The notes under the pieces are model-generated. The model was not told the DNA's origin. It searched no databases and saw only the letters and a program-made list of their open reading frames with translations. A DNA stretch of 64,000 bases from Gammaproteobacteria bacterium (GTDB lineage: Bacteria; Pseudomonadota; Gammaproteobacteria; Ga0077554; Ga007554), in the NCBI GenBank assembly GCA_021731145.1, contig JAKFXX010000007.1, positions 72,108 to 136,107 of the forward strand, in the 5' to 3' direction. Position 1 is the stretch's first letter. Every line of letters begins with the position of its first letter. Positions 767-27,774 of this stretch are shown here, in pieces. The position numbers and the translations under genes are program-made.

Positions 767-821
767 CTTAAATGGTTTTTGATGTTTGGTTTTTTGTTTC
801 CACATTAAGAGGAACAGAGTA

Positions 822-4346: not shown

Positions 4347-7300
4347 ATGAATGCAAACTTGTTCCGGTTGGTTTTCAGTGCGCGGCTTGGCGCGCTGGTG
4401 CCGGCGTGGGAGGGCGCGCGGGCGCGTCGTGCGGGCAAGGGTGGGCAGCGTGGCCGGGCCGGCAAGCATGCCGCGTTGTTTGCAGGGGCGGCGGGTGTTT
4501 TGTTGTGCGTATTTCCAGTCCATGCAGAGTTGCCGATGCCGTGTGGCGGTGGTGCATGCGGTACGAATCCGATCAATACCCTGCCGTTTGCGAGCAGTGG
4601 CCGCGCCGATTTTTCCAGCAACGGCGTCAGTGCGATTATCAATCAGCTTGACCAAAGAGTCGTGCTGAACTGGCAAAGTTTCAATATCGGGGCCGGTAAC
4701 AGTGTTGAATTCAGGCAGCCGGATGCCGGTTCGGCGGCGCTGAACCGTATATGGCAGGGGTCGCCGAGCGAAATTCTTGGCAACCTGAAAGCCAATGGTC
4801 AGCTTTATCTGATCAATCAGAACGGTATTATTTTCGGCAAGGATGCTCAGGTGAATGCCAGCTCGCTGGTGGCATCGGCGCTGAATATCAGCGACGATGT
4901 TTTCAAAAATGGCGGTATTTACGGCGAGTCGTCGGGCGCAAACCCTGTGTTTACCTGGGAAGATGGCAGCGGGGTGGAATATTCCGCCAGCTTCATCCGG
5001 GTGGATAACGGCGCGAAAATCGCGTCCGCGTCCGGTGGCGTGGTCATGATGCTGGCACCCAAGGTGGAAAATCATGGCAGCATCTCCGCGCCGGGAGGGC
5101 AGGCGGTGCTTGCCGCCGGCGCCAAGGTGTACCTGAGCCTGTTGTCCGACAATGAGGTCAATGGCCTCCCCGCAGGTTCATCGCTGCGTGGCTTTGCCGG
5201 GTTGCTGGTGGAGGTTGACCCGCATGCCTCGGGGCTGGGCGGTGAAGTGACCAATATTGGCCAGATTGTCGCCGAGCGCGGCAATATTACCTTGGCTGGG
5301 CTGGCGGTAAACCAGATGGGGCGGGTTACCGCCACGACGTCGCTGCGGCAAAAGGGTTCGATCATGCTGCTGGCCGCCGATACCAAGGCGGGCGGTGACA
5401 AGACAAAGATTCCTGTCGGGCAGCGCACCGGTGCATTGGTGCTGGGCAAGGACAGCGTAACCGAGGTGTTGCCGGAGACGAATGATGCCACTACCAATTT
5501 CGACGGGCAGGGATTCAGTCCGTCCACGGTGGATCTGGCGGGCAAGAGTATTGAGATGCGGGAGAACGCCGCGATTGTCGCACCGGGCGGAAAAGTCAGT
5601 CTTGTTGCCCGTGAGGATCAGCGGTTACCCGTGCCCAGTGAAAGCAAGATTTATATGGCGCCCGGCAGCCGTATTGATGTATCCGGTACGAAAGATGTCG
5701 ATGTGCCCATGGAGCGCAACTTCATTGAGGTGGAGCTGCGTGGTAACGAGCTGAAGGATTCACCGCTGCAGCGCGATGGCGCGTTGCGCGGCAAAAAAGT
5801 GTGGATTGATATTCGCAAAGGCACACCGCTTGCAGATGTCTCCGGTTATACCGCCCAGGTGGGGAGAACGGTCGCGGAGCGTACCGCGGAAGGTGGTGAG
5901 GTGTCGCTGGTGTCCGCAGGCGATATCGTGATGCGTGAAAATGCTGTGATCGATGTCTCCGCGGGCGGGTTGCGTTATCGTGATGGGCAAGGCAAAACGA
6001 CGCAGTTGGTGTCGCAGGGCAGGGTGTATGACATAGGCGATGCGCCGGCCGATGTCATTTACGATGGCATTGCCAGTTTCACCAAGGAATCAAGAAAGTG
6101 GGGGATTACATCCACCTGGAGTGCCTTTGGTGGAGATGGCTCGCTGAGCCGGTTTGAGCAGGGCTATTACGAAGGCAAGAATGCAGGGTCGGTGACGTTT
6201 CTTGCGAGTGGGCTGGCACTGGATGGCACCTTGACGGGCAAGGCAGCCGCGGGCGTGCATCAGCGCGGCAGTGGCGTGCTGCCCCTGGGCGGGAAGTTTA
6301 CGCTAGGCGATGTCAGTCAGGCCGGGGCGTCTACGCCTGATTTCAGGATTCCGGATGTGCTCTTTTCCGCACAAAAAAATCCGTTGCCTGATGATTTTAC
6401 TTTCGATGAACTCAAGGCGAAGGGTTTGCCTGAAAGTTTCAGGAATCGCGTGACACTCTCCACCGGCGTGTTGCAAGCAGGGGGATTCAACCGTATTGGC
6501 GTATACAGCAACGGGCGCATCGAGGTGCCTAAAGGCGTGTCGATCAGTCTCGCGCCCGGCAGTTGGCTCGGAAAGGACGAGGAGGGGAAGGACAAGATAT
6601 ACACCGCCTCGCTGACACTGACCGGCAGAAAGCTGGATATCCTGGGCGATATCGATGTGCCGGCGGGCAAGATTACGCTGGCGAGCAAGAGAACGCTCGG
6701 CTCCGAGCTACTACAACAGGCGGAAGATTTTCGCGTCAATGTGGGCGCGGACGCCGGCATCACTGCCCGTGGTTTGTGGGTGAATGACTCGCGCTGGGTT
6801 ACGCCGGTAACGGGTGCGGACCCGTTGCTGATCAACGGCGGGTCGATTTCAGTAAGCGCCTTTTCAGATGTCGCACTGAGTTCCGGCAGCGTGCTGGATG
6901 TTTCCGGTGGGGGATGGGTGAAGCCCAATAACCGGCTACAGGTGGGCAACGCCGGTACCCTCAGTTTGGCAAGCGGCTCTTTTGTAAATATAAATAGACC
7001 TGATCGATTTGAATCAACACTCTATCTCGATGGCGAGCTCTACGGCTACGCACTGAGCAGCGGTAACACCGTGGGTAAGGGTGGCACGCTCTCGCTCAGC
7101 ACCTCCAGCGTAAAGATTGGCGGCACGCCTTCCCCTGTCCCCGGCGTATTATCACTTGCCACTGGCGTGTTTCAATCCGGCGGTTTCAAGGACTACACCA
7201 TTACCGGCATGGAGGGCGTTACCGTGAGCCGTGGCGCGCAAGTCGCTCCGCTTGCCGAGAGCCGGGTGCTGACGCCGGATTTTGTGACACGCCGCAGCGG

Positions 7301-10300
7301 TGCGGATATTGGCGGCTTCAGCCGGCGCCAGGTGTTGCTGCCAGAGCAGCGTGCGCCCGGCACCATCACCTTTGCCGCCGGAAGTTCCTTGTGGGGAGCT
7401 ATTTCGGTTGAGGAAGGCGCGCAGGTGCGCACCGATCCAGGGGGAACGATTACGCTCAGTGCAGGCAGCCAGATCAGCCTTTTTGGCGCGCTGGAAGCGC
7501 CCGCCGGGAAGATTTTGCTGGATATAAAAGGCTATGCCGTGAACGGGACATTCGAGCCTAACCGTTTCGTTTGGCTGGGGGGCAACAGCCGCTTATTGGC
7601 GCAGGGTTTCGCCAGAACCCAGACCAATAACCAGGGGCTGCTTCAGGGCGAGGTTCTGGCTGGCGGTGAGATTAACGTCAGCGCCCCGCAAGATACATAT
7701 CTTGTCGCCGAGGCGGGTTCGGTGATGGATGTTTCAGGGGTCAGCGCCACGCTGGATATTCCTCAGCAAAACAATGCCGGCGTGAGCTATCGCCGTGACA
7801 CGATTGCCGGGGATGCGGGCGTTGTTAATCTTGCCATGTCCAACATGTTGCTTGACGGCACATTAAAGGGTGCGGCCGCCGGGGAGCATGCGCGTGGTGG
7901 TTCGCTTATTCTGTCATCCCCCGTGATGGTGGTGAAAGAGGATGGCGCGTCGTTGCCGCAGGGTTTGACGCCCGGCCAGAATATCGCTGCCAAAATGCTT
8001 GAGCCTGCGGCAAGCGCCCTCCAGGGGAAGTCTTTCGTTACGGCAAAGTCGGTGCGTGATGGCGGCTTTGATCAGATCACCTTGACGAGCCTGAACACCA
8101 TTGAATTTGATGGCGATGTCAGCCTTGCGCTGCGGCGCAGCATCACGCTCGATGCGCCAACGATTGCGGCAAAGGAGAATGCCAAGGTTGATCTCGCGGC
8201 CAGTTATGTGTCTGTGGGCAATAGCTCGATTGTGAAGTCGGCATCATCGGGTGGCGGTGGAACGTTAGACGTCGATGCGCGCCTGATTGATCTGGAAGGT
8301 AATGTTGCGCTACAGGGTTTTGGCAATGTTAATTTGGCCAGCACCGGTGATATCCGGCTCAAGGGCGTGTTGCAGGGCAGCGATTTTCTTGCACGCACGC
8401 TGGAAGGCTCGCTTGTCACCGGCGGCAACCTGACGCTACAGGCTGACCAGATTTATCCCACCACCTTGAGTCAATTCCGGCTGGCCGTTGAAAATAATCC
8501 AACGGGCAGCGTGACGATCCTCGGTGGAGGCGCGCCCAGCCCGGTGTTGTCGGCGGGCGGCAAACTTACCGTGAATGCGCCAAACATTGTGCAGCAAGGG
8601 GTACTCAAGGCGCCGCTGGGTGACATCACGCTGGCAGCGGAAGATACGCTGACCTTGGGCGATGGCAGTATCACGTCGGTTTCGGCGGAGGGGCAGATCA
8701 TTCCCTTCGGCAAGACCGATCTGAACGGCAGCGATTATCTCTACCCGCTGGCAGCCGTCGATCTTCGGCTGGATGCGCCGCCTGAAAAGCGTATCCGGTT
8801 GAATGGCAAGGCGATCACGGTTTCAGAAAATGCCGTAGTGGATATCTCCGGCGGGGGCGATCTTTACGCCTATGAATTCATTCCGGGGCCGGGTGGATCC
8901 AGGGATGTGCTTGATGCGGCGAATGCGGGTGATGTTTTCGCCATTCTGCCGGGACGTGCATCTGAATTTGCACCCTATGACAGCCATTATTATCAGGGTA
9001 ACAAGGGAATCAAGCCGGGCGATAGTGTTTATCTATCCGGCGTGGAGGGCTTGCCGGCAGGTTTTTATGCCATGATGCCTGCCCGTTATGCCTTGTTGCC
9101 CGGCGCCTTTCTGGTGAAACCGGTCTCAGGGTATCAGGATATGTCGCCTGGCCAGGCTGTGAAATTGACCGATGGCGCAACCATTGTGTCAGGCTACCAC
9201 GCGGCCGTGGGCCTGGACGGCAGCATCCTGCGTGATGCCAGAACATCGGGTTTTGCCGTGCGCCCTGGCGCATCTGCGCGCACCCAATCGGAGTATCTGG
9301 ATAGCACCGCGAGCGGATTCTTCGCCAACAGCCCGGGCACCCAGCTATCGGGCGATGCAGGCAATCTCTCCATCGCCGCTACCCAGTCCTTAACGCTGAA
9401 TGGTGTGCTGAAAGGTGATCATGCCGCTGGGCGTAACGGCTCGGAAGTGGACATTACCGCCGACCGGCTGGCCATCGTAGGCGCAGGGGCAGACACGTCT
9501 GGTCTGGAGGGCTTCATGCAGCTTGATGCCGCCAGCCTGAACAAATTCAGCGCGTCCAGCCTGTTGTTGGGCGGTACCCGCAAGCGCACTGAAAAAGGCA
9601 TGGAAATCCGCATGGATGCACGGCAGGTTGTGGTCGCCAACACGGCATCCAGCGCGCTGCGTGGCCCTGAGGTTTTATTGGCCGCCAAGGATGAGGTCAG
9701 GGTAAAGGCGGGCAGCGTAGTGGAAGGCAAGGGCGCCGCTTCCGGCAAGCCCCAGGATATTGCCATCGGGTTCACGATCAGGGATACCGACAACGACGGC
9801 GTTATCGGCAAGGCGGACACCAATCGCGGTGATGTGAATCATGATGGCGTGATTGATGGGCAGGACAATGTGGACGGCAATGGCGCGCTGTTGCGCGTGG
9901 CGTCCGGTGAAGCGGTGGCGATAACGCGCGAGAGCGTTGATCGCAGCCAGGGTGATCTGGTGGTGGAGGCCGGCGCGGTGTTGCGGGCAGACAAGTCCAT
10001 GATATTGGACGCTACGCGTGACAACCGTTCAGAGGGCACGCTTGCATTGGGCGAAGGGGGCGCTTTGAGCGTGGGCGCGCAGCGCATCAGCCTGGGCGAG
10101 GCGGGCGATGTGCGGGAAGGGTTGGTGTTTTCCAATGCGCAGCTTGCCGCGCTGAATAACCTTGGCAGCCTGACACTGCGCAGTTATAGCGCGGTGGATA
10201 TTTATGGCGGGGGCGATTTCGGCAGCAAGGCACTGAAGAACCTTTCTATCGAAGCGGCGGGTTTCGGAGGTTATCAAAACGCAGGACAAACAGCGACGCT

Positions 10301-13300
10301 GCGCGCGGAAACGGTTTCGCTGTCAAAACCGAACAACGCGGTCTCTGACGTGGCCGTGCCCGTGGGCACCGGCAAGCTGAATATCGACGCGCAACGGGTG
10401 ATGCTGGGCAAGGGCAAAACCGCACAGAGCAGTGACAACACGGAAGCGGGTTTTGCTGACGTCAAAGGTTTTACCATCAAAGGCTTTGATGGTGGCGTGA
10501 AGCTCGCTGCCGCGCAGGAGATCGTCGCCCAGGGACGCGGCAAACTCGATGTCGATGGCGATCTTGCCCTGGAGTCCTCCCGCATTACGGCGGCGGGCGG
10601 CGCCCGGCAGGCAATAACGGCCACTGGCGCAGTGAATATCACCCAACCCACGGTCGTGGCGAATCTTGGACAAGCCACCGCCCTGGCCGGGCGCCTGGAT
10701 TTCGTGGGCAAAAGCATCAATCATCAAGGCCGGATCGACCTCCCCACGGGCGTGGTGACAATGACCGCCAAGGGCGCGGATGCAACAGACAGCGTTACCC
10801 TTGCGGCAGGTTCGCAAATCAATGCGCCTGGATTCGTCAAGCGTTTCGACGACGTCGCCGCGTATGCGGCCGGGGGCAGCGTCACGCTGGTCTCGGAGCA
10901 CGGTGATGTGAATGTCAATTCAGGCGCATTGGTGGATGTGTCAGGCACGGCGCAGAGCGATGCGGGCCGTTTGACGCTCCGTGCGGCGCAAGGGCGGGCG
11001 AATATTGAAGGGAGCCTGAAGGGAGCCGCAGGCAGCACCTCACGCAAGGGTACTTTCACGCTGGATGCGGGTAAGATTTCTGACTTTAGCGCGCTGAACA
11101 ATACCCTGAACGCCGCCGAATTTGGCGAGGCGCGCAACATCCGCGTGCGCGGTGGCGACATCGCCGTGGCTGAGGGTGACACCATCAAGGCGCACCAGGT
11201 CAGCCTCGTCGCGGATGATGGCAGGATAGACGTGAAAGGCACAGTGGATGCCTCTGGCGACACCGGCGGAAGAATCGGGCTGTATGCGCAAAAAGACGTA
11301 ATGCTGCATAAAGGCGGCAGGCTTGATGCCCGCGCCATGGCTGCGGACAAAAAGGGCGGCAGTGTCACGCTGGCAACCAGCGCGGGCGAGATCGACCTGG
11401 AGTCGGGTGCGAGCATCGATGTTTCCGGCGGGGGCAAAGACAAAGGCGGCACAGTGCTGCTACGCGCGCCGCGCATCGACACTGACAATGACCAGAAAGA
11501 TGATAATGTCGCTATTAACCGCAAAGCAGGCACGGAGATCGCCATTCCCAGCGCATCCAGTGTTGTTATCGAAGGGGTTAAGGTGTACGACGCCACTACC
11601 ATTGCCGCGACAGGGGCCAAGGTGGCCACCGCTGCGGCAGCAAGCAATAAGTTGTACAGCGACACCAAGGGCTTCGCGCAGAACGCTGATGCCATCAAGG
11701 CGGGCCTCGGCAAAGGCGGTGATGCTAGCGTCCATGTGCGTGCGGGTGTGGAAATCCGCAGCCCCGGCGATTTGACCCTTGCTGCGGACTGGGATCTTTT
11801 TAATTGGCGTTTCAATGGTGAGCCTGGCGTACTTACCCTGCGCGCGCAAGGTGACCTGAAGCTTGATAAATCGATCAGTGATGGTTTTGCTTTTGCTTTT
11901 ACCAAGACGGGGGTCGATAAAGAGAAATCGCTGCTGCAAGCGGGAGACTCCTGGTCTTATCGTCTGGTGGCAGGGGCGGATCAAGGCAGTGCGGACCCCC
12001 TGGCCTTGCAGCTTCCGGGAGACGATACGGTGGGTGATGTTTTGCTTGCCGGCAAAACCATTGTTCGCACAGGCAACGGGACGATAGATATTGCCGCCGC
12101 GCGCGATGTTACCTTGGTCAGCGCGGAGTCGGTGATCTACACGGCGGGTGTGCCTGGGGGTCCTTTGAGTGATTTCACCCCTCCCCGTATGGGAGCGGAT
12201 GCTGCGGCAGTTACCGCTGCGTATCCCACGGCGGGCGGCGATATTCGCATCACCGCGCAAGGCAACATCGAGGCCAAGCAGCCGTCTCCCCAGCTCATCA
12301 CGGATTGGCTGTTCCGCCAAGGCAGCCTCAATGCCGACGGCACATTGGCGTCAAACTCATCTGTAAACGCCAATCACAAACAACCGGCCTGGCGGCCGGT
12401 GTTTAGCCAGTTCAAGCAGGGGATAGGCGCGCTGGGTGGCGGTGATATTTCCATTACAGCCGACGGTGATATTGACAACCTTTCGGCGGTCATCCCCACC
12501 AATGGCCGGCTGGGGGGAGCCAATGGCTCGATCCCCGATCCATCCAAACTGGTAGTGCAGGGTGGCGGCAATCTGAGCGTGACGGCGGGCGGCGATATTC
12601 GCAGCGGTATTTTCTATGTCGGCAAGGGCGTGGGCGACATCAAGGCCGGTGGTGCGCTGGGTTCGGCGCGTTCCGCGGATGGCAAGCCCTTATATACCTT
12701 GCTGGCGCTGGGCGAGGGCAGCTATAACGTCGCCTCTGGCGGTGAGTTGGCAGTGCAGCATGTGTTTAACCCTACCGTCGTGGCGCAAGCGGGTGGAAAT
12801 TTGAGTGGCACATCGAAGGATAAAAAATCTCAATTCTTTACCTATGACGCCGATAGCAAGGTGGCAATGACCTCGCTTTCCGGCGATGTGCGCTTTATCA
12901 ATGATTCGGCAAGCACGAAGAGTGTCTTTGGCAAAAATTCCGAGGGTATGTTTAACATCTATCCAGGCACGTTGTCCGCGTCGGCCTTGCAGGGAGGCAT
13001 TAGCTTGCATGGGCCTTTGGCGTTGTTCCCTGCGCCGCAAGGTAACTTGACCTTGCTTGCGGAAAAGTCGATCGATCTGAGCAGTAACACAGCGACGATC
13101 AATATGTCGGATGTGGCGCCTTCACGTTTGCCAAGCCCGCTTCATCCGCAGTCTGCTGACACTCTTGGGTTATATAAAGATGGGAACATCACAGCGCTGG
13201 TTTCAGCGGCGGACCTGGAAGGGCTCGATTATCACGACCCCGCCATCCTGCATCGTAACGACGCAGAGCCGGTGCGAATCTATGCGCAAACCGGGAGTAT

Positions 13301-14711
13301 CACCGGTGGCAACGCTCAGCGTTTTGCCATTCTACCCAAGCGGGCGTTACTCAGCGCCGGTGTGGACATTAAAAATGTTTCGCTCGCCGGGCAAAACCTG
13401 CGTGATACGGACGTGACCCGCCTTCAGGCCGGGCGCGATGTCATATTCCAGATCCAGCGTAATGATTCAGATGGTAAAATTATTTTTAGCCCAGGCCTCG
13501 AAGATCTCCCCATGAGCGGCCCCGGACGGGTGGAGGTGATTGCCGGGCGCGATGTGGATCTGGGCAGTTCCAGCGGCATCGTCACCAAGGGCAACCTCTA
13601 CAACCCCTTTCTCCCGGAACAGGGCGCCTCAGTGCTGGTATACGCGGGGGCGTCCGCGCCGGCGGATTACGCCGCATTCACCGCGCGCTACATCGAGCCG
13701 CGCGGCGCGGCAACAGGCGGGCGTGACTATATCCCCGAGCTTGCCAGTTACATGCGTGGCCAGAGTGGCGATTTGGGTCTCACTGAGGATGCGGCACTCG
13801 CTCAATTCAAGGCCTTGCCGCAAGAATCGCAGGCCGCGTTCATCAACCGTGTGTTCTTCGCCGAACTCAGATCCTCCGGCCGCGCCGCAGCCGATGTAAA
13901 AGGCCCGGAATACCGTAACTACAGCCATGGCAGAGCGCTCATTGCCACCCTGTTCCCAGCCGTCGAGGGTTCCGCAGGCCAGCCTGAAGGGGACATCAGG
14001 CTATATTTCAGCCAGATCAAAACCGAACAAGGCGGAGATATTGATTTGCTCGCGCCCCATGGTTTGGTCAATGCGGGGCTTGCCACTGCCAAGGGTGTAA
14101 ACAAAACAGCCGCAAACCTCGGTATCGTCAGCGTGCGTGGCGGCAATATAAACGCTTTTGTGCGCGACGATTTTCTGGTCAACCAGTCACGGGTGTTTAC
14201 CATGGCGGGTGGCGATATTCTGATCTGGTCCGACAAGGGCGATATCGACGCCGGCAAAGGCTCAAAAACCGCCAGCGCCACACCGCCGCCACGGCTGAGA
14301 TTGAACAAGGATGGTAGACTCTTTTTTGATATCACCGACTCGGTGACGGGCAGCGGCATCGGCACATTGCTCAGCAAGGAAGGCGTCAGGCCGGGCGATG
14401 TCGATTTGATAGCGCCCGCAGGCGTGGTGAACGCGGGTGATGCGGGCATCCGTGCCAAGGGTGACATCTTCATCCCTGGTTTGGTAGTGGGTGGGGATAA
14501 TATCCGGGCGGGGGGTACCATCACCGGCGTACCCGTCAGCGATAGTGGCGCATTCGCCGGTGCCCTGAGCGGCGTCAGCAACCTTGGCGCCGACACCAGC
14601 AAAATTGCCGAAAAGGCCACCCAGGATCTCTCCGCGTCGGCCGCCAATCCAGTGAAAAACACCTTCCGGCCTTCATTCCTGACGGTGGAGGTGATCGGAT
14701 TCGGTGATTGA
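4347..14711 (+). CDS. Filamentous hemagglutinin family TpsA exoprotein (3454 aa) with an extended signal peptide and an N-terminal TPS secretion domain
   Basis: It has an ESPR-type N-terminus (MNANLFRLVFSARLG...) and a TPS domain (NPINTLPFASSG...VLNWQSFNIGAGNSVEFRQP...ILGNLKANGQLYLINQNGIIFG). The body is long and Gly/Ala/Thr-rich, consistent with a beta-helical fold. I saw no VENN or CdiA-CT toxin boundary. Confidence 0.9.
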   Translation: MNANLFRLVFSARLGALVPAWEGARARRAGKGGQRGRAGKHAALFAGAAGVLLCVFPVHAELPMPCGGGACGTNPINTLPFASSGRADFSSNGVSAIINQLDQRVVLNWQSFNIGAGNSVEFRQPDAGSAALNRIWQGSPSEILGNLKANGQLYLINQNGIIFGKDAQVNASSLVASALNISDDVFKNGGIYGESSGANPVFTWEDGSGVEYSASFIRVDNGAKIASASGGVVMMLAPKVENHGSISAPGGQAVLAAGAKVYLSLLSDNEVNGLPAGSSLRGFAGLLVEVDPHASGLGGEVTNIGQIVAERGNITLAGLAVNQMGRVTATTSLRQKGSIMLLAADTKAGGDKTKIPVGQRTGALVLGKDSVTEVLPETNDATTNFDGQGFSPSTVDLAGKSIEMRENAAIVAPGGKVSLVAREDQRLPVPSESKIYMAPGSRIDVSGTKDVDVPMERNFIEVELRGNELKDSPLQRDGALRGKKVWIDIRKGTPLADVSGYTAQVGRTVAERTAEGGEVSLVSAGDIVMRENAVIDVSAGGLRYRDGQGKTTQLVSQGRVYDIGDAPADVIYDGIASFTKESRKWGITSTWSAFGGDGSLSRFEQGYYEGKNAGSVTFLASGLALDGTLTGKAAAGVHQRGSGVLPLGGKFTLGDVSQAGASTPDFRIPDVLFSAQKNPLPDDFTFDELKAKGLPESFRNRVTLSTGVLQAGGFNRIGVYSNGRIEVPKGVSISLAPGSWLGKDEEGKDKIYTASLTLTGRKLDILGDIDVPAGKITLASKRTLGSELLQQAEDFRVNVGADAGITARGLWVNDSRWVTPVTGADPLLINGGSISVSAFSDVALSSGSVLDVSGGGWVKPNNRLQVGNAGTLSLASGSFVNINRPDRFESTLYLDGELYGYALSSGNTVGKGGTLSLSTSSVKIGGTPSPVPGVLSLATGVFQSGGFKDYTITGMEGVTVSRGAQVAPLAESRVLTPDFVTRRSGADIGGFSRRQVLLPEQRAPGTITFAAGSSLWGAISVEEGAQVRTDPGGTITLSAGSQISLFGALEAPAGKILLDIKGYAVNGTFEPNRFVWLGGNSRLLAQGFARTQTNNQGLLQGEVLAGGEINVSAPQDTYLVAEAGSVMDVSGVSATLDIPQQNNAGVSYRRDTIAGDAGVVNLAMSNMLLDGTLKGAAAGEHARGGSLILSSPVMVVKEDGASLPQGLTPGQNIAAKMLEPAASALQGKSFVTAKSVRDGGFDQITLTSLNTIEFDGDVSLALRRSITLDAPTIAAKENAKVDLAASYVSVGNSSIVKSASSGGGGTLDVDARLIDLEGNVALQGFGNVNLASTGDIRLKGVLQGSDFLARTLEGSLVTGGNLTLQADQIYPTTLSQFRLAVENNPTGSVTILGGGAPSPVLSAGGKLTVNAPNIVQQGVLKAPLGDITLAAEDTLTLGDGSITSVSAEGQIIPFGKTDLNGSDYLYPLAAVDLRLDAPPEKRIRLNGKAITVSENAVVDISGGGDLYAYEFIPGPGGSRDVLDAANAGDVFAILPGRASEFAPYDSHYYQGNKGIKPGDSVYLSGVEGLPAGFYAMMPARYALLPGAFLVKPVSGYQDMSPGQAVKLTDGATIVSGYHAAVGLDGSILRDARTSGFAVRPGASARTQSEYLDSTASGFFANSPGTQLSGDAGNLSIAATQSLTLNGVLKGDHAAGRNGSEVDITADRLAIVGAGADTSGLEGFMQLDAASLNKFSASSLLLGGTRKRTEKGMEIRMDARQVVVANTASSALRGPEVLLAAKDEVRVKAGSVVEGKGAASGKPQDIAIGFTIRDTDNDGVIGKADTNRGDVNHDGVIDGQDNVDGNGALLRVASGEAVAITRESVDRSQGDLVVEAGAVLRADKSMILDATRDNRSEGTLALGEGGALSVGAQRISLGEAGDVREGLVFSNAQLAALNNLGSLTLRSYSAVDIYGGGDFGSKALKNLSIEAAGFGGYQNAGQTATLRAETVSLSKPNNAVSDVAVPVGTGKLNIDAQRVMLGKGKTAQSSDNTEAGFADVKGFTIKGFDGGVKLAAAQEIVAQGRGKLDVDGDLALESSRITAAGGARQAITATGAVNITQPTVVANLGQATALAGRLDFVGKSINHQGRIDLPTGVVTMTAKGADATDSVTLAAGSQINAPGFVKRFDDVAAYAAGGSVTLVSEHGDVNVNSGALVDVSGTAQSDAGRLTLRAAQGRANIEGSLKGAAGSTSRKGTFTLDAGKISDFSALNNTLNAAEFGEARNIRVRGGDIAVAEGDTIKAHQVSLVADDGRIDVKGTVDASGDTGGRIGLYAQKDVMLHKGGRLDARAMAADKKGGSVTLATSAGEIDLESGASIDVSGGGKDKGGTVLLRAPRIDTDNDQKDDNVAINRKAGTEIAIPSASSVVIEGVKVYDATTIAATGAKVATAAAASNKLYSDTKGFAQNADAIKAGLGKGGDASVHVRAGVEIRSPGDLTLAADWDLFNWRFNGEPGVLTLRAQGDLKLDKSISDGFAFAFTKTGVDKEKSLLQAGDSWSYRLVAGADQGSADPLALQLPGDDTVGDVLLAGKTIVRTGNGTIDIAAARDVTLVSAESVIYTAGVPGGPLSDFTPPRMGADAAAVTAAYPTAGGDIRITAQGNIEAKQPSPQLITDWLFRQGSLNADGTLASNSSVNANHKQPAWRPVFSQFKQGIGALGGGDISITADGDIDNLSAVIPTNGRLGGANGSIPDPSKLVVQGGGNLSVTAGGDIRSGIFYVGKGVGDIKAGGALGSARSADGKPLYTLLALGEGSYNVASGGELAVQHVFNPTVVAQAGGNLSGTSKDKKSQFFTYDADSKVAMTSLSGDVRFINDSASTKSVFGKNSEGMFNIYPGTLSASALQGGISLHGPLALFPAPQGNLTLLAEKSIDLSSNTATINMSDVAPSRLPSPLHPQSADTLGLYKDGNITALVSAADLEGLDYHDPAILHRNDAEPVRIYAQTGSITGGNAQRFAILPKRALLSAGVDIKNVSLAGQNLRDTDVTRLQAGRDVIFQIQRNDSDGKIIFSPGLEDLPMSGPGRVEVIAGRDVDLGSSSGIVTKGNLYNPFLPEQGASVLVYAGASAPADYAAFTARYIEPRGAATGGRDYIPELASYMRGQSGDLGLTEDAALAQFKALPQESQAAFINRVFFAELRSSGRAAADVKGPEYRNYSHGRALIATLFPAVEGSAGQPEGDIRLYFSQIKTEQGGDIDLLAPHGLVNAGLATAKGVNKTAANLGIVSVRGGNINAFVRDDFLVNQSRVFTMAGGDILIWSDKGDIDAGKGSKTASATPPPRLRLNKDGRLFFDITDSVTGSGIGTLLSKEGVRPGDVDLIAPAGVVNAGDAGIRAKGDIFIPGLVVGGDNIRAGGTITGVPVSDSGAFAGALSGVSNLGADTSKIAEKATQDLSASAANPVKNTFRPSFLTVEVIGFGD

Positions 14712-14949: not shown

Positions 14950-16743
14950 ATGAAATTGCAATCCAACAAAAAGATATCGCGCATTTTTTTATTACTGGCG
15001 GGTTTGATGACGCTTGTCCCAGGTGTTTCCCACGCCTGGTGGAGTGACGATTGGTCGTATCGCAAAAAGATAACCCTCAATACCACGGAAAGTGGAGCAA
15101 GTATCAAGGAGAGTTTGGCGTCCGTGCCGGTCTTGGTGCGTCTGCACAGCGGCAATTTCGATTTTTTGAGCAGCAAGGAAGACGGATCGGACCTGCGTTT
15201 TGTCAGTGGCGATGACAAAACACCGCTCAAATATCACATCGAAAAATTCGATGGGCTGAATGAGCTTGCCGTGATCTGGGTACAGGTGCCGGCGCTGTCG
15301 GCACAATCCAGCGCCGACGCAATGTGGCTGTATTACGGCAATGAAAAGGCGGCCGCAGGCGATGACGCCAAAGGCACTTACGACGTTAATCAGGTGGTTG
15401 CCTATCATTTTGGCGGCCAGGGCGCACCCAAGGATCAAACCGCCTATGCCAACAGTGCAGCACAGTCCACGGCGAGCGAAGCCGCTGCATCATTGATCGG
15501 CGCAGGCGCAATATTCAATGCTACAAGCACCATAACCATACCGGCATCACCTTCACTCAACTTTACCGCAGAGAAGGGCTTCACGTTTTCCGCATGGATC
15601 AAGACTGCTGCGACGCAGGCGAATGCCGTAATTTTTTCCCAGCAGGAGGGCGCGGCGTCGCTGGTTATCGGCATGGATCAAGCGGGGGTGTATGCCCGCA
15701 TGCCCGGTGCGGAAACAAAACGTGTCGCGTTGGCGCCAGGCGCATGGCACCACGTGGCGGTAAGCGCCGGTAAGCGCCTGGTTGTTTATGTCGATGGCGT
15801 TGAGGCAGCAGCGGCGGATGCCGCCCTGCCGCCGCTGGGTGGGAATATCACGCTGGGCACCTCATTTACCGGTGAGATGGATGAGGTGCAGATATCAAAC
15901 GTTGCCCGTTCCGCGGACTGGATTAAAGCAGCGGCGCAAGGGGAAGGCGTTGATGCGAAGTTGATCGCCTACGGCGCGGATGAACAAACAGAGGGCGGCG
16001 ACTCATCTTATTTTAAGACTATCCTGCAATCCGTTACGCTCGATGGCTGGGTGGTGATCGCGATTTTGATGGTGATGGCCGTCATAAGCTGGATCGTGAT
16101 GGTGAACAAGGCTGTCGTCATCGGCAGAATGACCAGGGATAATGAAAAATTTATCACGTCTTTCCAGAAAGTCGCGGCTGATCCAGGCGTGCTGGACAGG
16201 GATGATGATCAGGATGATAACGCCAATAAAGAGACGCCTTTTGCCGCAGCATTGTTCGGGCGGCACGATCATTACCAAAGCTCGCCGATTTACCGCATCT
16301 ATCATGTTGGTGTGCAGGAAATCAAACACCGCTTTGGCAACACCGATCCCAAACTTGTAGGCAAGGCGCTCTCGCCGCAAGCCATCGGTGCGATTCGTGC
16401 CAGCCTCGATGGGGCATTGGTCAGGGAAAATCAGAAGCTCTCCAGCCAGATGGTGTTGCTCACCATCGCCATCAGTGGTGGGCCGTTCCTTGGTTTGCTC
16501 GGCACCGTGGTGGGCGTGATGATCACCTTCGCCGCGATTGCCGCCAGTGGTGACGTCAACGTCAATGCCATTGCGCCCGGTATTGCCGCAGCGCTGGTGG
16601 CTACCGTGGCGGGTCTGGCCGTGGCGATTCCAGCACTGTTTGGCTACAACTACCTGATCAGTAAAATCAAGAATATCACTGCGGATATGCATGTATTCGT
16701 CGATGAGTTTGTTCACAAGCTGGCTGAGAACTACGGAACTTAG
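14950..16743 (+). CDS. DUF2341 plus LamG-like domain fused to a MotA/TolQ/ExbB proton-channel domain
   Basis: It has a signal peptide and the DUF2341 signature (WWSDDWSYRKKITL). A beta-rich LamG-like middle region follows. The C-terminus has three transmembrane helices with the ExbB/TolQ motif (LLTIAISGGPFLGLLGTVVGVMITFAAIA). Confidence 0.8.
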   Translation: MKLQSNKKISRIFLLLAGLMTLVPGVSHAWWSDDWSYRKKITLNTTESGASIKESLASVPVLVRLHSGNFDFLSSKEDGSDLRFVSGDDKTPLKYHIEKFDGLNELAVIWVQVPALSAQSSADAMWLYYGNEKAAAGDDAKGTYDVNQVVAYHFGGQGAPKDQTAYANSAAQSTASEAAASLIGAGAIFNATSTITIPASPSLNFTAEKGFTFSAWIKTAATQANAVIFSQQEGAASLVIGMDQAGVYARMPGAETKRVALAPGAWHHVAVSAGKRLVVYVDGVEAAAADAALPPLGGNITLGTSFTGEMDEVQISNVARSADWIKAAAQGEGVDAKLIAYGADEQTEGGDSSYFKTILQSVTLDGWVVIAILMVMAVISWIVMVNKAVVIGRMTRDNEKFITSFQKVAADPGVLDRDDDQDDNANKETPFAAALFGRHDHYQSSPIYRIYHVGVQEIKHRFGNTDPKLVGKALSPQAIGAIRASLDGALVRENQKLSSQMVLLTIAISGGPFLGLLGTVVGVMITFAAIAASGDVNVNAIAPGIAAALVATVAGLAVAIPALFGYNYLISKIKNITADMHVFVDEFVHKLAENYGT

Positions 16744-16783
16744 TACATGAACACATAAATTGTGCAGCGTAATGCCGCACGAT

Positions 16784-16830: not shown

Positions 16831-16892
16831 ATGGGGTTCGGATCATGTTTCGTAATTTATAATTTCATGTGCTAGGACTGGAGGATAAAACG

Positions 16893-17297
16893 ATGCAAGT
16901 GCAGTCCGAAGATAAACCGTACGATGACATCAACGTCACGCCCATGCTCGATCTGGCGTATGTGTTGCTGGTAATTTTCATCATCATGACCACCGCTTCG
17001 GTACAGGGTATCAAGGTCAATCTGCCCAAGGCCAGCGCCACACCAAGCCTGGCTAAACCGACCACCAAGGCGATTACGATCACCGATGCCGGGCAAATAT
17101 TTCTCGACACCTATCCGGTGACGATGTCGGAGCTGGAAACACAGTTGCGCAGTTACAAGGCAGCCAACCCAAGTTTTCCCGTGGTCATCAAGGGCGACGC
17201 CAAGGTTCAGTATGAAAAGGTGATTGACGTGCTGGACTTGATGGGCAAGCTCGATATTACGCAATTGGGTTTGGTTACACAGAAAATTGTCAAATAA
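16893..17297 (+). CDS. ExbD/TolR family biopolymer transport protein
   Basis: A single N-terminal transmembrane helix (NVTPMLDLAYVLLVIFIIMT) is followed by a periplasmic domain typical of ExbD/TolR. It is adjacent to the ExbB-like gene. Confidence 0.8.
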   Translation: MQVQSEDKPYDDINVTPMLDLAYVLLVIFIIMTTASVQGIKVNLPKASATPSLAKPTTKAITITDAGQIFLDTYPVTMSELETQLRSYKAANPSFPVVIKGDAKVQYEKVIDVLDLMGKLDITQLGLVTQKIVK

Positions 17298-17336: not shown

Positions 17337-18032
17337 GTGAGTGCCGACAAGCAGTTTCTGTTCCGCTGGGCGCCCAGGCTGATAGTGGTGGCGTTCCTCC
17401 TGCTGTTTCTTGTGGCGGCGGTCTATTTTCTGAGAGATATCATCTTTGCTGATGATAGCCACAAAAAAAATGTGATCCATGAGATCTCGCTGATAAAGCC
17501 GCCGCCGCCTCCCAAGCCAGAGGAAAAACCACCGGAGCCGGAGGTGAAAAAAGAAGAGGTAAAAATCCCCGAGCCGGAAACGCCGCCTCCTCCTGCTGAT
17601 CAGCCTGATAATGCCAAGCAAGACGAACCACCGCCCGCAAACGACTTGGGGCTGGATGCTGATGGTCAGGCGGGTTCTGATTCCTTTGGCTTGGGTGCCA
17701 ACAAAGGGGGAAGAAGCATCATCGGAGGGGGGGGCGGTAACGGCGGTGGTGGAAATCGCTACGGCTGGTATGCGGGAATGATTGAAAAGGGAATTCAGGA
17801 TGTTTTGGACAAGAATAAAGAGCTTGCCAAAGATAACTATAAGGTTGTCATAAAAGTCTGGGTCAACAAGGACGGGAGCGTCGAGCGCTTTGATCTTGGC
17901 GGTTCTTCCGGGAATCCAGAGACGGATAAGGCGATAAGGACGGCACTGAAAGAAATGACACGGGTGAAAGAACCGCCTCCAGACGGAATGCCGCAACCTG
18001 TAAAGCTGCGCATCACTTCGCGTTTGTTGTAA
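17337..18032 (+). CDS. TonB-like energy transducer (N-terminal transmembrane helix, Pro/Glu/Lys-rich spacer, C-terminal TonB-like domain)
   Basis: It has a transmembrane helix (LIVVAFLLLFLVAAVYFL), a spacer (PPPPKPEEKPPEPEVKKEEVKIPEPETPPPP), a Gly-rich stretch and a C-terminal domain (YKVVIKVWVNKDGSVERFDL...). A GTG start is assumed. Confidence 0.6.
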   Translation: MSADKQFLFRWAPRLIVVAFLLLFLVAAVYFLRDIIFADDSHKKNVIHEISLIKPPPPPKPEEKPPEPEVKKEEVKIPEPETPPPPADQPDNAKQDEPPPANDLGLDADGQAGSDSFGLGANKGGRSIIGGGGGNGGGGNRYGWYAGMIEKGIQDVLDKNKELAKDNYKVVIKVWVNKDGSVERFDLGGSSGNPETDKAIRTALKEMTRVKEPPPDGMPQPVKLRITSRLL

Positions 18033-18121: not shown

Positions 18122-19660
18122 ATGGCAATTAAGAAATTAGGTGTTACCGTCTTATCTCTCGCATTGTTCAATCCATCCGCGTGGGCTGGAGAAAAAGAAG
18201 ATCTTGAAAAACTGCGCGGAACTACCAAAGGACTGATTCAAATTCTGGTGGAGCAGGGCGCGATTACCAAGGAAAAGGCCGGGGAGTTAATACGCGAGAT
18301 CGAGAAATCTCCCACGGAAACGGAAACACCGGAAGAAGAAGTAGATAAGAAAACCGTGCGCGTGCCTTACGTGTCTGAAACGGTCAAGCAGGAAATGACG
18401 GAGCAGATCCGGATGGATGTGCTGGCACAAGCCAAGCGGGAACAGTGGGGCAAGCCCGGCGCAATCCCTGAGTGGGCACAGAAAATAAGGTGGGAAGGCG
18501 ATTTTCGCTTGCGTTCACAGAGCGATATGTTTCAGAGCGACAACTTTAACCTCCTGCCAAACTATCTGGAGATTAACCGGGTTGGCGGTCCGGCGAATAC
18601 GGATAATCCCTTTCTGAATACTACTAATGACCGGGAGCGTTTACGGTTGCGGGCAAGGCTGAGCATGCTCGCCGAAGTCACGCAAGGGGTCACGGCGGCA
18701 TTCCGTCTGGCCACCGGTAGTGCCAATGATCCTGTTTCGACCAACCAGACATTGGGCAATATGGGCAATCGTTTTAATTTTATGCTTGATCAAGCCTACA
18801 TCAAGCTGGAGCCTTATCAATGGTTGACGCTGGTGGGTGGCAAGATACCCAATCCCTGGTTTGGCACCGACCTGGTGTGGGACGAGGATCTTAACTTCGA
18901 TGGCGCCGCCGTGCAATTCAAACCGCGCATCGGCAACGAACTGGTATGGTTCTCAACGCTGGGTGCTTTTCCGTTGCAGGAAATCGAGCTGTCGAAAAAG
19001 GACAAATGGCTATACGGTGCGCAGACCGGTGTCGATTGGAATCGAAGCCAGTTCAGGGCGAGATTTGGCGTGGCTTATTATGACTACCAGAATATCACCG
19101 GGCAAAGAAAAGCGCCCAATGATCCTTCTCAGGATTTTACCGCGCCGCAGTTTATGCAGAAAGGTAATACCTTGTTTGATATTTCACAAACTCAAAACAG
19201 TGGCAGGTACGCGCTTGCATCTGAATACAAAGAATTGAACATAACCGCCAACCTCGATATATACACATTTTCCCCGGTACACATCACGCTGACAGGCGAT
19301 TATGTCAAGAATATTGGGTTTAAAAAAGAAGACATAGTGCAGCGTACCGGGAGAGATGTCGACCAGCAGAATCAGGCATATTTGGGCAGGGTTGCTGTCG
19401 GCATGCCGAGGATCAAGCATCGCCACGACTGGCAGGTGTTCGGTGGTTATAAACACCTGGAAAGCGACGCCGTATTGGATGCCTTCACAGATTCCGATTT
19501 CCATCTGGGGGGCACCAATGCCAAAGGCTGGATCGCGGGCGGTAGCTATGGTGTTGCCACCGATACCTGGCTGACACTGCGCTGGTTGAGCGCGGATCAG
19601 ATAGTTGGGCCGCCGCTTGCCATCGACGTTATGCAACTTGATTTGAACGTGAGATTTTGA
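18122..19660 (+). CDS. Putative outer-membrane beta-barrel protein (porin-like; not a TonB-dependent receptor)
   Basis: It has a signal peptide (AWA/GE), an N-terminal charged helical segment, then alternating amphipathic beta-strands. The C-terminus is ...LNVRF, with an aromatic terminal residue. Confidence 0.55.
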   Translation: MAIKKLGVTVLSLALFNPSAWAGEKEDLEKLRGTTKGLIQILVEQGAITKEKAGELIREIEKSPTETETPEEEVDKKTVRVPYVSETVKQEMTEQIRMDVLAQAKREQWGKPGAIPEWAQKIRWEGDFRLRSQSDMFQSDNFNLLPNYLEINRVGGPANTDNPFLNTTNDRERLRLRARLSMLAEVTQGVTAAFRLATGSANDPVSTNQTLGNMGNRFNFMLDQAYIKLEPYQWLTLVGGKIPNPWFGTDLVWDEDLNFDGAAVQFKPRIGNELVWFSTLGAFPLQEIELSKKDKWLYGAQTGVDWNRSQFRARFGVAYYDYQNITGQRKAPNDPSQDFTAPQFMQKGNTLFDISQTQNSGRYALASEYKELNITANLDIYTFSPVHITLTGDYVKNIGFKKEDIVQRTGRDVDQQNQAYLGRVAVGMPRIKHRHDWQVFGGYKHLESDAVLDAFTDSDFHLGGTNAKGWIAGGSYGVATDTWLTLRWLSADQIVGPPLAIDVMQLDLNVRF

Positions 19661-19717
19661 CCTGTGTATTTTTTAGAGTCACGGAACACGGCCGGGACCA
19701 GACAGGAGGTGAATGTC

Positions 19718-20416
19718 ATGATCCGTCATAAAGGATGGCTTCTGCTTGTAATGTTCACTCTAGGGTTGGCCGGAAATGCCGCTGCGGATTCCGGTGACAA
19801 AAAAGAACGCGAGGCGCTAAGAAAAATGCGCCTCATGATACAGACGTTTGAACAGGAAAAATCGGCGCTGCAGCAGGAAAACAATAGCCTGAACGAGAAA
19901 GTGAAGGCACTGGGTAGCCAGGTCGGTGACATCAAAAGCGCTTCCACAGGCCAGATCAGGAAAAAAGATGCTCGTTTGGGCGAGGTTGAAAAGGAACTGG
20001 TTGCTGTCAAACAGGAAAATCAGTTTCTGGTAGCCAAGCTGCAAAGTACCCAGCAGAGTCTGGAAGAATTGACGCTGAAGCACAAGGAGGTTGTTCAGGC
20101 CGCGCAAAACAGTCTTCAGGACGGCGTCAAGCAAGGCGAGGAGTATAACAATAAGATAAAAGAGGCTGAAGTCAAAATTTCTCAGCAGTCTCAAGCTATT
20201 GACATGTGCGAGAAGAAGAATCTGGCGCTTTACAATCTCAATATGGAGATTCTGGAGAAATACAAGAGTAAGGGTGTTTGGGGATCATTTATTCAGGCTG
20301 AGCCCTTTACGCAAATAAAGCGCGTTGAAATTGAGAATACACTGCAAGAATATAAGGACAAGCTTGACAGCCAAAAAATGGAAAAATCTGGACCCGGCAC
20401 CGGCAAGGGAGGATAG
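19718..20416 (+). CDS. Secreted coiled-coil protein of unknown function
   Basis: An RBS (aggagg) lies upstream of ATG 19718. The signal peptide is followed by heptad-rich, Gln/Glu/Lys-rich sequence. Confidence 0.5.
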   Translation: MIRHKGWLLLVMFTLGLAGNAAADSGDKKEREALRKMRLMIQTFEQEKSALQQENNSLNEKVKALGSQVGDIKSASTGQIRKKDARLGEVEKELVAVKQENQFLVAKLQSTQQSLEELTLKHKEVVQAAQNSLQDGVKQGEEYNNKIKEAEVKISQQSQAIDMCEKKNLALYNLNMEILEKYKSKGVWGSFIQAEPFTQIKRVEIENTLQEYKDKLDSQKMEKSGPGTGKGG

Positions 20417-27768: not shown

Positions 27769-27774
27769 CGTAAA

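Follow-up and report, generated by a model that had tools for sequence, protein, structure and literature searches.

A DUF2341-LamG-ExbB fusion of the ExbB2 type and its linkage to two-partner secretion and Porin_5 genes

The stretch of DNA analyzed here (the window; 64,000 nucleotides of a Gammaproteobacteria bacterium, contig JAKFXX010000007.1) carries at 14950..16743 (+) the gene for an ExbB2-type fusion protein of 597 aa, which joins a signal peptide, a DUF2341 domain and a LamG domain to a TolQ/ExbB channel. The open reading frame spans 14899-16743 (+), and the choice of the ATG at 14950 as the start fits the homologues, which are 597-599 aa long and align with 100% coverage. Three Pfam domains were recognized: DUF2341 at residues 78-145 (66.8 bits vs GA 23.4), Laminin_G_3 at residues 192-326 (63.6 bits vs GA 27.6) and MotA_ExbB (PF01618) at residues 477-580 (96.8 bits vs GA 22.9). 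The N-terminus reads as a Sec-type signal peptide (residues 1-28; 14950..15033 (+)), MKLQSNKKISRIFLLLAGLMTLVPGVSHA followed by WWSDDW, with predicted cleavage after SHA; the cleavage junction, A-x-A/WW, is kept across two family alignments (A1 and A3). Because a signal peptide is present, the N-terminal module (residues 29-346; 15034..15987 (+)) is placed in the periplasm. Hydrophobic stretches lie at residues 8-30, 357-393 and 500-567, the last comprising TM2 and TM3, and the AF2 model has helices at 354-410, 476-533 and 538-595. The MotA_ExbB core with TM2 and TM3 (16378..16689 (+)) was identified by Pfam, by alignment to TolQ and by Foldseek. An earlier sequence-only reading of this gene had proposed a DUF2341 and LamG-like periplasmic half on a MotA/TolQ/ExbB-family channel with three transmembrane helices. 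Both parts of that proposal are borne out, the first by Pfam scores and a lectin-like fold in structure comparison, the second by agreement of signal peptide, Pfam, hydropathy, AF2 and Foldseek.

The periplasmic module, of about 320 residues, is predicted to be a single rigid unit in which the DUF2341 beta-sandwich packs against a ConA/LamG lectin-type jelly roll, with a predicted flexible linker of about 15 residues leading to TM1 of the TolQ-like three-helix channel. Both the jelly-roll fold and the profile match of a ConA-like lectin or LamG domain were found, and the best structural matches (AbnA domain 4, neurotoxin Hc-N, CBM40 and LamG) are all non-catalytic binding domains. DUF2341 plus LamG is a genuine recurrent cassette that occurs in tandem in giant proteins of 0.9-7.9 kaa, with 3-25 matched stretches in searches and each domain present 2-4 times in the seven proteins scanned. 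The label "MshQ-type" given to the cassette by the sequence-only reading is not supported: neither a pilin domain nor an MshQ-specific domain was found in seven sampled cassette relatives, the fusion has no MshQ-type match in NCBIfam, and its only pilus-related NCBIfam match is a weak one to TafC (E = 0.0035). A search of the MshQ/LamG literature found nothing relevant. DUF2341 has been tied in published work to type IV pilus tip adhesins (PilY-type proteins, archaeal T4P loci).

The channel part superimposes on TolQ structures with TM-scores of 0.73-0.81 (Foldseek) and is nearer to TolQ than to ExbB among PDB matches (1e-15 vs 1e-9). It matches the TolQ model TIGR02796 with E = 4e-39, at 134.5 bits, which is below the equivalog cut-off of 221. 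Thr519, Thr552 and Pro561 align with the 'GTV', 'IAT' and 'AIPA' motifs of E. coli TolQ, and the position of TolQ Glu173 is occupied by Ala. The polar Thr ring is intact, and the partner ExbD retains its transmembrane Asp. On architecture, a Zor-like defence system was set aside as a reading: the N-terminal periplasmic module, the ExbD partner and the TonB-like protein are unlike ZorAB.

The fusion gene lies within a set of envelope genes. Upstream are a PdtB-like TpsB outer-membrane transporter with POTRA_2 and ShlB domains (2576..4186 (+)), which is 41% identical over 507 aa to P. aeruginosa PdtB (E = 6e-120), and a giant PdtA-like TpsA exoprotein of 3454 aa (4347..14711 (+)) with an ESPR signal, a TPS domain and a C-terminal DUF3739. 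The latter is 28% identical over 1092 aa to the C-terminal part of PdtA, and its DUF3739 region and extreme C-terminal motif (KPSFLxVEVxGFG) are conserved. Downstream follow the cognate ExbD and TonB-like genes that the sequence-only reading had noted, both confirmed by Pfam. The ExbD2-like B subunit (16869..17297 (+), probable start ATG 16893; Pfam ExbD 97.8 bits) is nearer to ExbD than to TolR, shares 61% identity with P. aeruginosa ExbD2 and keeps the transmembrane Asp (TPMLDL) when aligned to E. coli ExbD. The TonB4-like energy transducer (17337..18032 (+)) consists of a TM anchor, a Pro-rich rod and a TonB_2 C-terminal domain (39.4 bits vs GA 22) that also matches TolA models; it is 33% identical to P. 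aeruginosa TonB4, and a conserved TM His (SHLS-type motif) was not found across the 62-sequence family alignment. Next come a PA0696-like Porin_5 outer-membrane barrel (18122..19660 (+); E = 8e-175, 36% identity to PA0696), with an N-terminal periplasmic extension whose conserved VRVPYVPE motif reads VRVPYVSE in the window copy, and a secreted PA0697-like coiled-coil protein (19664..20416 (+), probable start ATG 19718). The latter is rich in K, E, L and Q, bears a signal peptide, matches PA0697 weakly (E = 3e-4) and belongs to no family found by Pfam search. A promoter and terminator scan of 14600-22300 gave no signal above shuffled expectation.

A secreted PBP_like_2-type protein at 786..2348 (+) is a possible accessory; its Pfam match is weak (21.9 bits, below GA 27), searches of PDB and NCBIfam gave no match, and members of its cluster are also near the fusion in two other loci (L031 and L069). 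In Pseudomonas, a PstS/DING-like protein (LapA/Psp) is found at the matching position (PMC2225411). The two may be equivalent, judged by position only, and membership of the window protein in the module is uncertain.

The closest known relative of the fusion is ExbB2 of P. aeruginosa (PA0693; P0154), which is 615 aa long, carries the same three Pfam domains and is 40% identical over its full length (617 columns, E = 2e-138). Its gene lies between those for PdtB and ExbD2-TonB4-Porin_5(PA0696)-PA0697-YbjN-PPIase-LysR; this is the published order of PA0690-PA0701, and P0154 was identified as ExbB2 from a protein search together with its gene context. All seven module proteins of the window match P. 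aeruginosa counterparts. By sequence comparison, the fusion is the orthologue of ExbB2, and the window module is the counterpart of PA0693-PA0697. A single operon of P. aeruginosa, dependent on sigma-VreI and PhoB, comprises pdtB, exbB2D2, tonB4 and PA0696-0701, and the ExbB2 system is induced by phosphate starvation in this species; single mutants in tpsA, tpsB, PA0695 and PA0696 are unchanged in zebrafish virulence. Our literature search found no functional study of tonB4, PA0695 or PA0696 beyond the VreI papers, no experiment that connects PdtA secretion or PA0696 with ExbB2/TonB4, and nothing functional on Porin_5 (PF16930). Profile searches found no vreAIR-like genes in the window. A search of the window for Pho boxes (CTGTCATNNNNCTGTCAT, an E. 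coli-type consensus, with up to 3 mismatches) gave 4 matches vs 4.17 expected by chance, and thus lends no support to phosphate control there.

The DUF2341-LamG-ExbB fusion was found in at least 583 species genomes, under the NCBI name "DUF2341 domain-containing protein". The family spans hundreds of Proteobacteria and some Verrucomicrobiota, and includes P. aeruginosa and a Klebsiella plasmid. Synteny was surveyed in 80 species-level loci, with neighbour counts stated per 72 or 66 loci. An antisense shadow ORF, 16872-17996 (-), was among those called in the window and survived the codon-position GC filter; because ORF calling kept it, neighbour counts were taken from tblastn with the window proteins. 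In 69 of 72 loci a TPS gene (TpsB or TpsA) is found no more than 10 kb from the fusion, and in 33 of the 72 the TpsA C-terminus is directly upstream. ExbD is present in all 66 loci, the PA0696-like Porin_5 gene in 64, the coiled-coil protein gene in 59 and the TonB4-like gene in at least 52 (all by tblastn). The genes to which the fusion is genetically locked are those for TpsB and a giant DUF3739 TpsA, for the TonB4-like transducer, for the Porin_5 barrel and for the secreted coiled-coil protein. Secondary neighbours are PpiC PPIase, YbjN and ECF sigma/FecR/VreA-like genes, which parallel PA0698-0699 and vreAIR, the ECF/FecR/VreA-like genes being present in only about 10 of the 80 loci. GT4 and GT41 (HMW1C-like) glycosyltransferase genes adjoin TpsA in 11 loci. 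For TonB-dependent receptors, no Plug or TonB_dep_Rec was seen among the 25 of 64 families listed for 21 representatives of large non-core neighbour ORFs (four more large-ORF neighbour clusters were annotated separately), and profile searches of the neighbourhood of the fusion in the window found none. TolB and Pal homologues were not found in the module. Near a fusion copy on a Methylomagnum plasmid, the PLSDB annotation, which is incomplete, shows neither a TPS nor a porin gene, which indicates that a core motor without these partners is possible.

A type IV filament-superfamily cluster (22177-31392) starts 5.4 kb downstream of the fusion, with CAAX protease and thioredoxin genes in between. 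The sequence-only reading had described it as MSH-like; its position stands, but by profile scores it types as T2SS rather than MSHA, since GspG passes its curated cut-off (164.8 bits vs 88.85) and the secretin scores higher as GspD (163 bits) than as PilQ (151) or MshL (82.8, against a cut-off of 250.2). It is scarcely plausible, then, that the lectin-like module has a pilus or pilus glycan as its ligand and so couples a proton motive force (PMF)-driven stator to a nearby MSH-like filament machine: besides the type of the cluster and the intervening genes, only 5 of 66 loci, all from close relatives, have GspF/GspE-type genes after the fusion, and the neighbours found throughout are instead TPS and Porin_5 genes. 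Synteny largely refutes the pilus connection, and what survives of the original proposal is a lectin-like module fused to a PMF stator subunit, as domains and fold attest. Of the outcome that the sequence-only reading named as refuting, half holds: the fusion is common and almost never adjoins type IV filament genes, but it is accompanied by TPS genes rather than by TonB-dependent receptors. Very improbable, too, is a catalytic module, in which a ConA-fold glycanase or lyase would attack polysaccharide of the periplasm or the capsule, with ExbB as no more than an anchor. Its best structural matches are to binding domains, its Pfam match is to the non-catalytic Laminin_G_3, and tandem repetition, as the cassette shows in giant proteins, is a usual feature of modules with a binding or structural role.

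ExbB2-ExbD2-TonB4 might instead be an ordinary alternative TonB system that energizes receptors encoded elsewhere, e.g., in phosphate- or iron-limited uptake, with the N-terminal module as an accessory stabilizer. The TonB_2 C-terminal domain, the Pro-rich rod and ExbD are all present, as such a system would have them, and the phosphate-starvation response in P. aeruginosa and the alkaline phosphatase, PhoX or PhoD genes that adjoin some fusion copies point the same way. A precedent is found in Serratia ExbB, whose periplasmic N-terminal extension is specific to the TonB paralogue HasB. We nevertheless consider this unlikely, given a TonB-like protein without the conserved TM His, a channel nearer to TolQ, no receptor among the large-ORF neighbour families listed in the 80-locus survey, and a near-universal linkage to TPS and Porin_5. 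The resemblance to TolQ raises the alternative of a Tol-Pal-like tethering paralogue, in which TolQ/R/A-like proteins, an outer-membrane barrel taking the role of TolB-Pal and a coiled coil similar to CpoB would stabilize or remodel the envelope at sites of giant exoprotein export while the lectin module binds peptidoglycan. The TIGR02796, PDB and TM-score comparisons all favour TolQ, the transducer matches TolA models, SLT transglycosylase genes are neighbours in 12 loci, and the order of A subunit, B subunit, transducer, outer-membrane protein and coiled coil resembles that of the Tol-Pal operon, tolQRA-tolB-pal-cpoB. Against this, the equivalog score is far below its cut-off, the B subunit is nearer to ExbD than to TolR, TolB and Pal are missing from the neighbourhood, and peptidoglycan binding by the module is a proposal only; this alternative appears decidedly improbable.

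We consider it fairly probable that the fusion is the A (channel/stator) subunit of a dedicated PMF-driven Ton/Tol-like system of the ExbB2-ExbD2-TonB4 type that is coupled to two-partner secretion. The solved TolQ5R2 and ExbB5D2 complexes suggest, by analogy, a channel pentamer whose periplasmic face is probably crowned by five copies of the rigid lectin-like module. Proton flow through ExbD would drive the TonB4-like rod, which may engage the Porin_5 barrel rather than a plugged TonB-dependent receptor, with the VRVPYVPE strand of the periplasmic extension as a candidate dock. The crown would bind an envelope ligand. Candidates are TpsA in transit (which may carry glycans in some lineages), the DUF3739 region retained at the C-terminus of TpsA, and a glycan; such binding would place or gate the motor where TPS export occurs. 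What is energized could be the export of the giant TpsA, its release or its retention, or the uptake of material that TpsA has captured. Counting against TPS coupling are the classical view that two-partner secretion needs no energy at the outer membrane, the unchanged zebrafish virulence of the single P. aeruginosa mutants, the lack of vreAIR genes and of Pho-box matches above chance in the window, and the Methylomagnum plasmid copy. A more specific version, which we regard as rather doubtful, is that ExbB2-ExbD2-TonB4-Porin_5 is a PMF machine dedicated to TPS, whereby the crown captures, in the periplasm, the giant TpsA (which may be glycosylated in some lineages) or its retained DUF3739 C-terminus, and the motor, acting via TonB4 on Porin_5 or TpsB, powers a step such as release, retraction or cargo uptake. 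If this holds, type Vb secretion would have its first described case of energy coupling from the inner membrane.

The fusion gene is one more member of a widespread, already-annotated but functionally unexplored ExbB2-type family, and the pilus link behind its apparent specialness is not real. The targets usually ascribed to Ton and Tol motors are plugged receptors or TolB-Pal. The genetic locking of stators that have a putative lectin-like periplasmic crown to a giant TpsA and Porin_5, in contrast to the energy-independent view of TPS, points to an unexplored envelope-spanning function. This can be tested in a model pathogen; the P. aeruginosa member sits in a phosphate-starvation virulence regulon.

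The window system shares with E. coli TolQ-TolR-TolA and ExbB-ExbD-TonB, whose motors were solved as 5:2 complexes, a three-TM A subunit, the Thr and Pro residues of TM2 and TM3 and the B-subunit Asp, as well as a Pro-rich transducer that crosses the membrane once and ends in a TonB/TolA-type domain. It differs from them in the cleaved signal peptide and the ~320-residue periplasmic lectin-like module on the A subunit, in a transducer without the conserved TM His, and in having neither a TonB-dependent receptor nor TolB/Pal, the candidate outer-membrane partners being Porin_5 and TpsB. With P. aeruginosa PA0690-PA0697 (the 'PUMA3' regulon) it shares the gene set (TpsA, TpsB, ExbB2, ExbD2, TonB4, Porin_5 and a small secreted protein) and a nearby T2SS and PstS-family-like secreted protein. 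The gene order is tpsB-tpsA-exbB2 in the window and pdtA-phdA-pdtB-exbB2 in Pseudomonas, the window is without vreAIR, YbjN, PPIase and LysR genes, and its T2SS-like cluster, which lies downstream of the module, has a PilM/N/O-type platform, unlike that of Pseudomonas. The tandem (DUF2341-Laminin_G_3)n giants share the whole 320-residue cassette with the fusion at about 30% identity, but these secreted or surface proteins contain multiple repeats and lack a membrane channel. A survey of non-flagellar MotA/ExbB homologues with N-terminal appendages (the 'GIT' clade) lists DUF2341 as an A-subunit N-terminal domain of unknown function (mBio 2025, PMC12505986). It gives no genomic context, ligand or function for DUF2341 A subunits, and its supplements do not name the DUF2341 carriers; the linkage to TPS and Porin_5 and the ExbB2 identity were established in the present analysis. 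A precedent for coupling between a TPS protein and a TonB-energized outer-membrane protein is provided by Haemophilus HxuCBA. In that system the TpsA protein HxuA is secreted by the TpsB protein HxuB and works with the TonB-dependent receptor HxuC. HxuC is a classical plugged receptor served by the housekeeping ExbBD-TonB, whereas the window encodes a dedicated motor with a putative lectin crown and a Porin_5 barrel.

The gene at 14950-16743 (open reading frame 14899-16743, plus strand, ATG at 14950) encodes a 597-aa protein with an N-terminal Sec signal peptide ending in SHA before WW, in which Pfam places DUF2341 (residues 78-145), Laminin_G_3 (192-326) and MotA_ExbB (477-580), each above its curated threshold. 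Hydrophobic segments lie at residues 357-393 and 500-567, and in the full-length AlphaFold model the all-beta region of residues 30-346 is connected by a disordered linker to a helical bundle, which superposes on solved TolQ chains with TM-scores of 0.73-0.81, against 0.68 for ExbB. Homologues of 597-599 aa align to the protein across 100% of its length. The sequence-only reading had proposed exactly this fusion of DUF2341, LamG and a three-helix ExbB-type channel with cognate exbD and tonB-like genes behind it, and both proposals hold: Pfam identifies ExbD (16869-17297) and a TonB_2-domain protein (17337-18032) after the fusion on the plus strand. Solved-structure matches of the N-terminal periplasmic module include sialidase lectin/CBM40 modules, pentraxins and laminin G; since just ~180-210 of its 322 residues are aligned, the DUF2341 half is without a clear solved counterpart.

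Residue-level alignment with E. coli TolQ showed that the fusion keeps the TM2 'GTV' threonine, the TM3 threonine and the 'AIPA' proline, whereas TolQ Glu173 is replaced by alanine. The transmembrane aspartate of the ExbD is kept in TPMLDL. Judged by these residues, the motor is intact at key positions and looks functional. The A subunit (the fusion) is nearer to TolQ than to ExbB, while the B subunit is nearer to ExbD than to TolR. Assignment as a bona fide TolQ was rejected, as the fusion scores 134.5 bits against TIGR02796 (TolQ; cut-off 221), and the A subunit is therefore placed in a distinct clade. The TonB-like protein has a proline-rich rod, and its C-terminal domain is conserved; a conserved transmembrane histidine was not found in its family. 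A 374-aa ORF antisense to exbD and tonB (16872-17996, minus strand) recurs across loci and was dismissed as a shadow ORF.

A protein search with the fusion returned 4793 matches; all of the best 120 have the same three domains, and several of these 120 carry the name 'DUF2341 domain-containing protein' or 'ExbB'. Scanning one genome per species located a relative in at least 583 species, with taxa including Bradyrhizobium, Burkholderia, Methylosinus, Thiobacillus, Sulfuricella, Magnetospirillum and Verrucomicrobiota. The closest genome match, an uncultured 'Gammaproteobacteria' MAG (locus L001), shows 94% protein identity. Eighty loci from the scan, all essentially full-length, were kept and queried with the window's own proteins, and enough sequence was available upstream in 72 and downstream in 66. 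A two-partner secretion (TPS) gene lies upstream of the fusion in 69 of the 72 (a directly adjoining TpsA C-terminus in 33, TpsB in 28, a TPS gene within 10 kb in 8 more). Downstream, ExbD is present in all 66 loci, Porin_5 in 64, a secreted coiled-coil protein in 59 and the TonB-like protein in at least 52. De novo clustering of neighbour ORFs added PpiC PPIase (19 loci), YbjN (15), ECF sigma (10), FecR (10), a VreA-like TonB_C protein (6), a Phd-like protein and polysaccharide-export genes as secondary neighbours. Neither Plug nor TonB_dep_Rec was found among the 25 of 64 families covered for 21 representatives of large non-core neighbour ORFs. GT4 (6 loci) and HMW1C-like TPR-GT41 (5 loci) glycosyltransferases adjoin tpsA, for example in L058 and L036, a hint that some TpsA proteins are glycosylated.

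The cluster downstream encodes GspF, GspE, an ORF at the PilM position without a family match, PilN, PilO, a TPR-secretin and several pseudopilins. Its earlier typing as MSH-like did not survive profile comparison: GspG passes the NCBIfam equivalog cut-off (164.8 bits against 88.85), and the secretin scores 163 bits for GspD, 151 for PilQ and 83 for MshL. By these profiles the cluster belongs to the type IV filament superfamily as a T2SS-like system and does not encode an MSHA pilus. The proposed physical tie between stator and pilus is not supported: only 5 of 66 loci (L001, L003, L004, L006 and L019) have GspF/GspE after the fusion, and these five belong to its nearest relatives, with L019 at 51% identity; in 2 of 66 the fusion is followed by CAAX protease and thioredoxin genes. 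The T2SS association is neither a conserved nor a physical link to the stator. The GspE-type ATPase (23379-25097) contains MshEN and, with 43 bits against a cut-off of 38, matches the NCBIfam model of the c-di-GMP-binding motif, so the T2SS-like system is probably c-di-GMP-regulated. The secretin (27775-30057) has an unusual architecture, with an N-terminal TPR region (YbgF/CpoB-like matches) and a FecR_C-like segment before the N domains; the ORF at 29960-30538 overlaps its 3' end, and the true start of that ORF is therefore probably further downstream.

A PEP-CTERM-tailed protein opens the window (12-602) and a PEP-CTERM-associated CAAX protease (20473-21162; TIGR03008, 241 bits, cut-off 81) separates the ExbB2 module from the T2SS-like cluster; the two suggest an exosortase system in the source organism. 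Ordinary housekeeping genes at 31900-46000 (topA, DUF494/smg, dprA, a LysM protein, def, fmt, rsmB, DUF4390, ntrY/ntrX-like, trkA) place the module in a proteobacterial chromosome.

An exhaustive search with the 322-residue N-terminal module (E <= 1e-30) matched 1036 representative proteins. Apart from ~600-aa ExbB fusions at ~40-56% identity, most of the highest-ranking matches are giant proteins of 0.9-7.9 kaa (up to 7867 aa), which contain the whole ~320-residue unit at ~30% identity in 3 to 25 matched stretches each. All seven giants scanned are tandem DUF2341/Laminin_G_3 arrays with each domain present 2-4 times; in two of them further small domains occur (FG-GAP; CarboxypepD_reg-like), whereas no pilin or MshQ-type domain was seen in any of the seven. 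With these arrays and the literature tying DUF2341 to PilY-type pilus adhesins and archaeal T4P loci, the notion that the DUF2341-LamG pairing belongs to large surface or pilus-associated proteins is reasonable in general.

The analysis establishes the topology, the fold and the intact motor residues of the fusion; TPS, TonB4, Porin_5 and the coiled-coil protein accompany it in a synteny that looks obligate, and the P. aeruginosa genes are co-transcribed. In the model we propose, the motor would be a 5:2 assembly with a periplasmic crown of five lectin-like modules, and TonB4 would pass force to an outer-membrane partner other than a plugged receptor. Porin_5 (18122-19660) is the best candidate. 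In its ~100-residue N-terminal periplasmic extension, compared with 64 homologues, a helical segment is conserved, the linker after it is poorly so, and then comes a highly conserved, strand-like (T)VRVPYVPE motif (residues ~75-90; VRVPYVSE in the window copy), which formally resembles a TonB box and could serve as a similar docking motif. The crown might bind TpsA in transit (GT4 or HMW1C-like GT41 genes flank tpsA in 11 loci), the conserved DUF3739 region of TpsA with its C-terminal KPSFLxVEVxGFG end, or an envelope glycan. At the TpsA C-terminus (14200-14711, 51 homologues) the extreme end beyond DUF3739 is a conserved KPSFLxVEVxGFG(D/E). Against this model, TPS is classically energy-independent, P. 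aeruginosa single mutants lack a zebrafish virulence phenotype, and around one plasmid copy the PLSDB annotation, which is incomplete, shows neither a TPS nor a porin gene.

In P. aeruginosa the order is hxc T2SS, lapA, pdtA (TpsA), phdA, pdtB (TpsB), exbB2, exbD2, tonB4, PA0696 (putative porin), PA0697, PA0698 (YbjN), PA0699 (PpiC) and PA0701 (LysR); all are phosphate-starvation-induced via PhoB and sigma-VreI, and phdA to PA0701 form a single transcript. A Klebsiella pneumoniae plasmid (L082, NZ_CP065459, IncFIB/IncHI1B) carries the whole PA0690-PA0701-like module, colinear with this order, with TpsB split and IS5/IS3 flanking, which indicates that the module is horizontally mobile. A Methylomagnum plasmid (L081, NZ_AP019784) has only fusion, ExbD, TonB and a hypothetical gene, with PhoX and a second alkaline phosphatase as neighbours. 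A search that started from the Klebsiella copy led to P0154, a P. aeruginosa protein of 615 aa (904 member sequences) named 'DUF2341 domain-containing protein'. Its context (TpsA of 4180 aa, DUF772, TpsB, P0154, ExbD, TonB_2, Porin_5, a 220-aa protein, YbjN, PPIase, a 141-aa protein, LysR, AraC) is PA0690-PA0701a gene for gene, so P. aeruginosa ExbB2 itself is a DUF2341-LamG-ExbB fusion.

The fusion is a new member of a known, widespread, already-annotated family. Llamas et al. (2009) had observed that homologues of TPS, exbBD and PA0696 occur as a group in Pseudomonas, Burkholderia, Rhodopseudomonas and Janthinobacterium, and a 2025 survey of MotA/ExbB homologues (PMC12505986) includes DUF2341 among the N-terminal appendages whose function is unknown. 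The remaining interest is at the family level, in the role of a lectin-crowned Ton/Tol-like motor for two-partner secretion. Just upstream of tpsB, a 520-aa secreted protein (786-2348) matches PBP_like_2 weakly (21.9 bits, below the GA of 27) with no PDB or NCBIfam match; its relatives adjoin the fusion in two further loci (L031 and L069). It holds the position of the PstS/DING-like T2SS substrates LapA and Psp, which in Pseudomonas lie with the Hxc T2SS beside a giant TpsA (PMC2225411), so a loose T2SS 'secretion island' association may recur. Protein by protein, the window's fusion is 40% identical to ExbB2 over its full length, ExbD 61% to ExbD2, TpsB 41% to PdtB, Porin_5 36% to PA0696, the TonB-like protein 33% to TonB4 and TpsA 28% to PdtA, and the coiled-coil protein matches PA0697 weakly (E = 3e-4).
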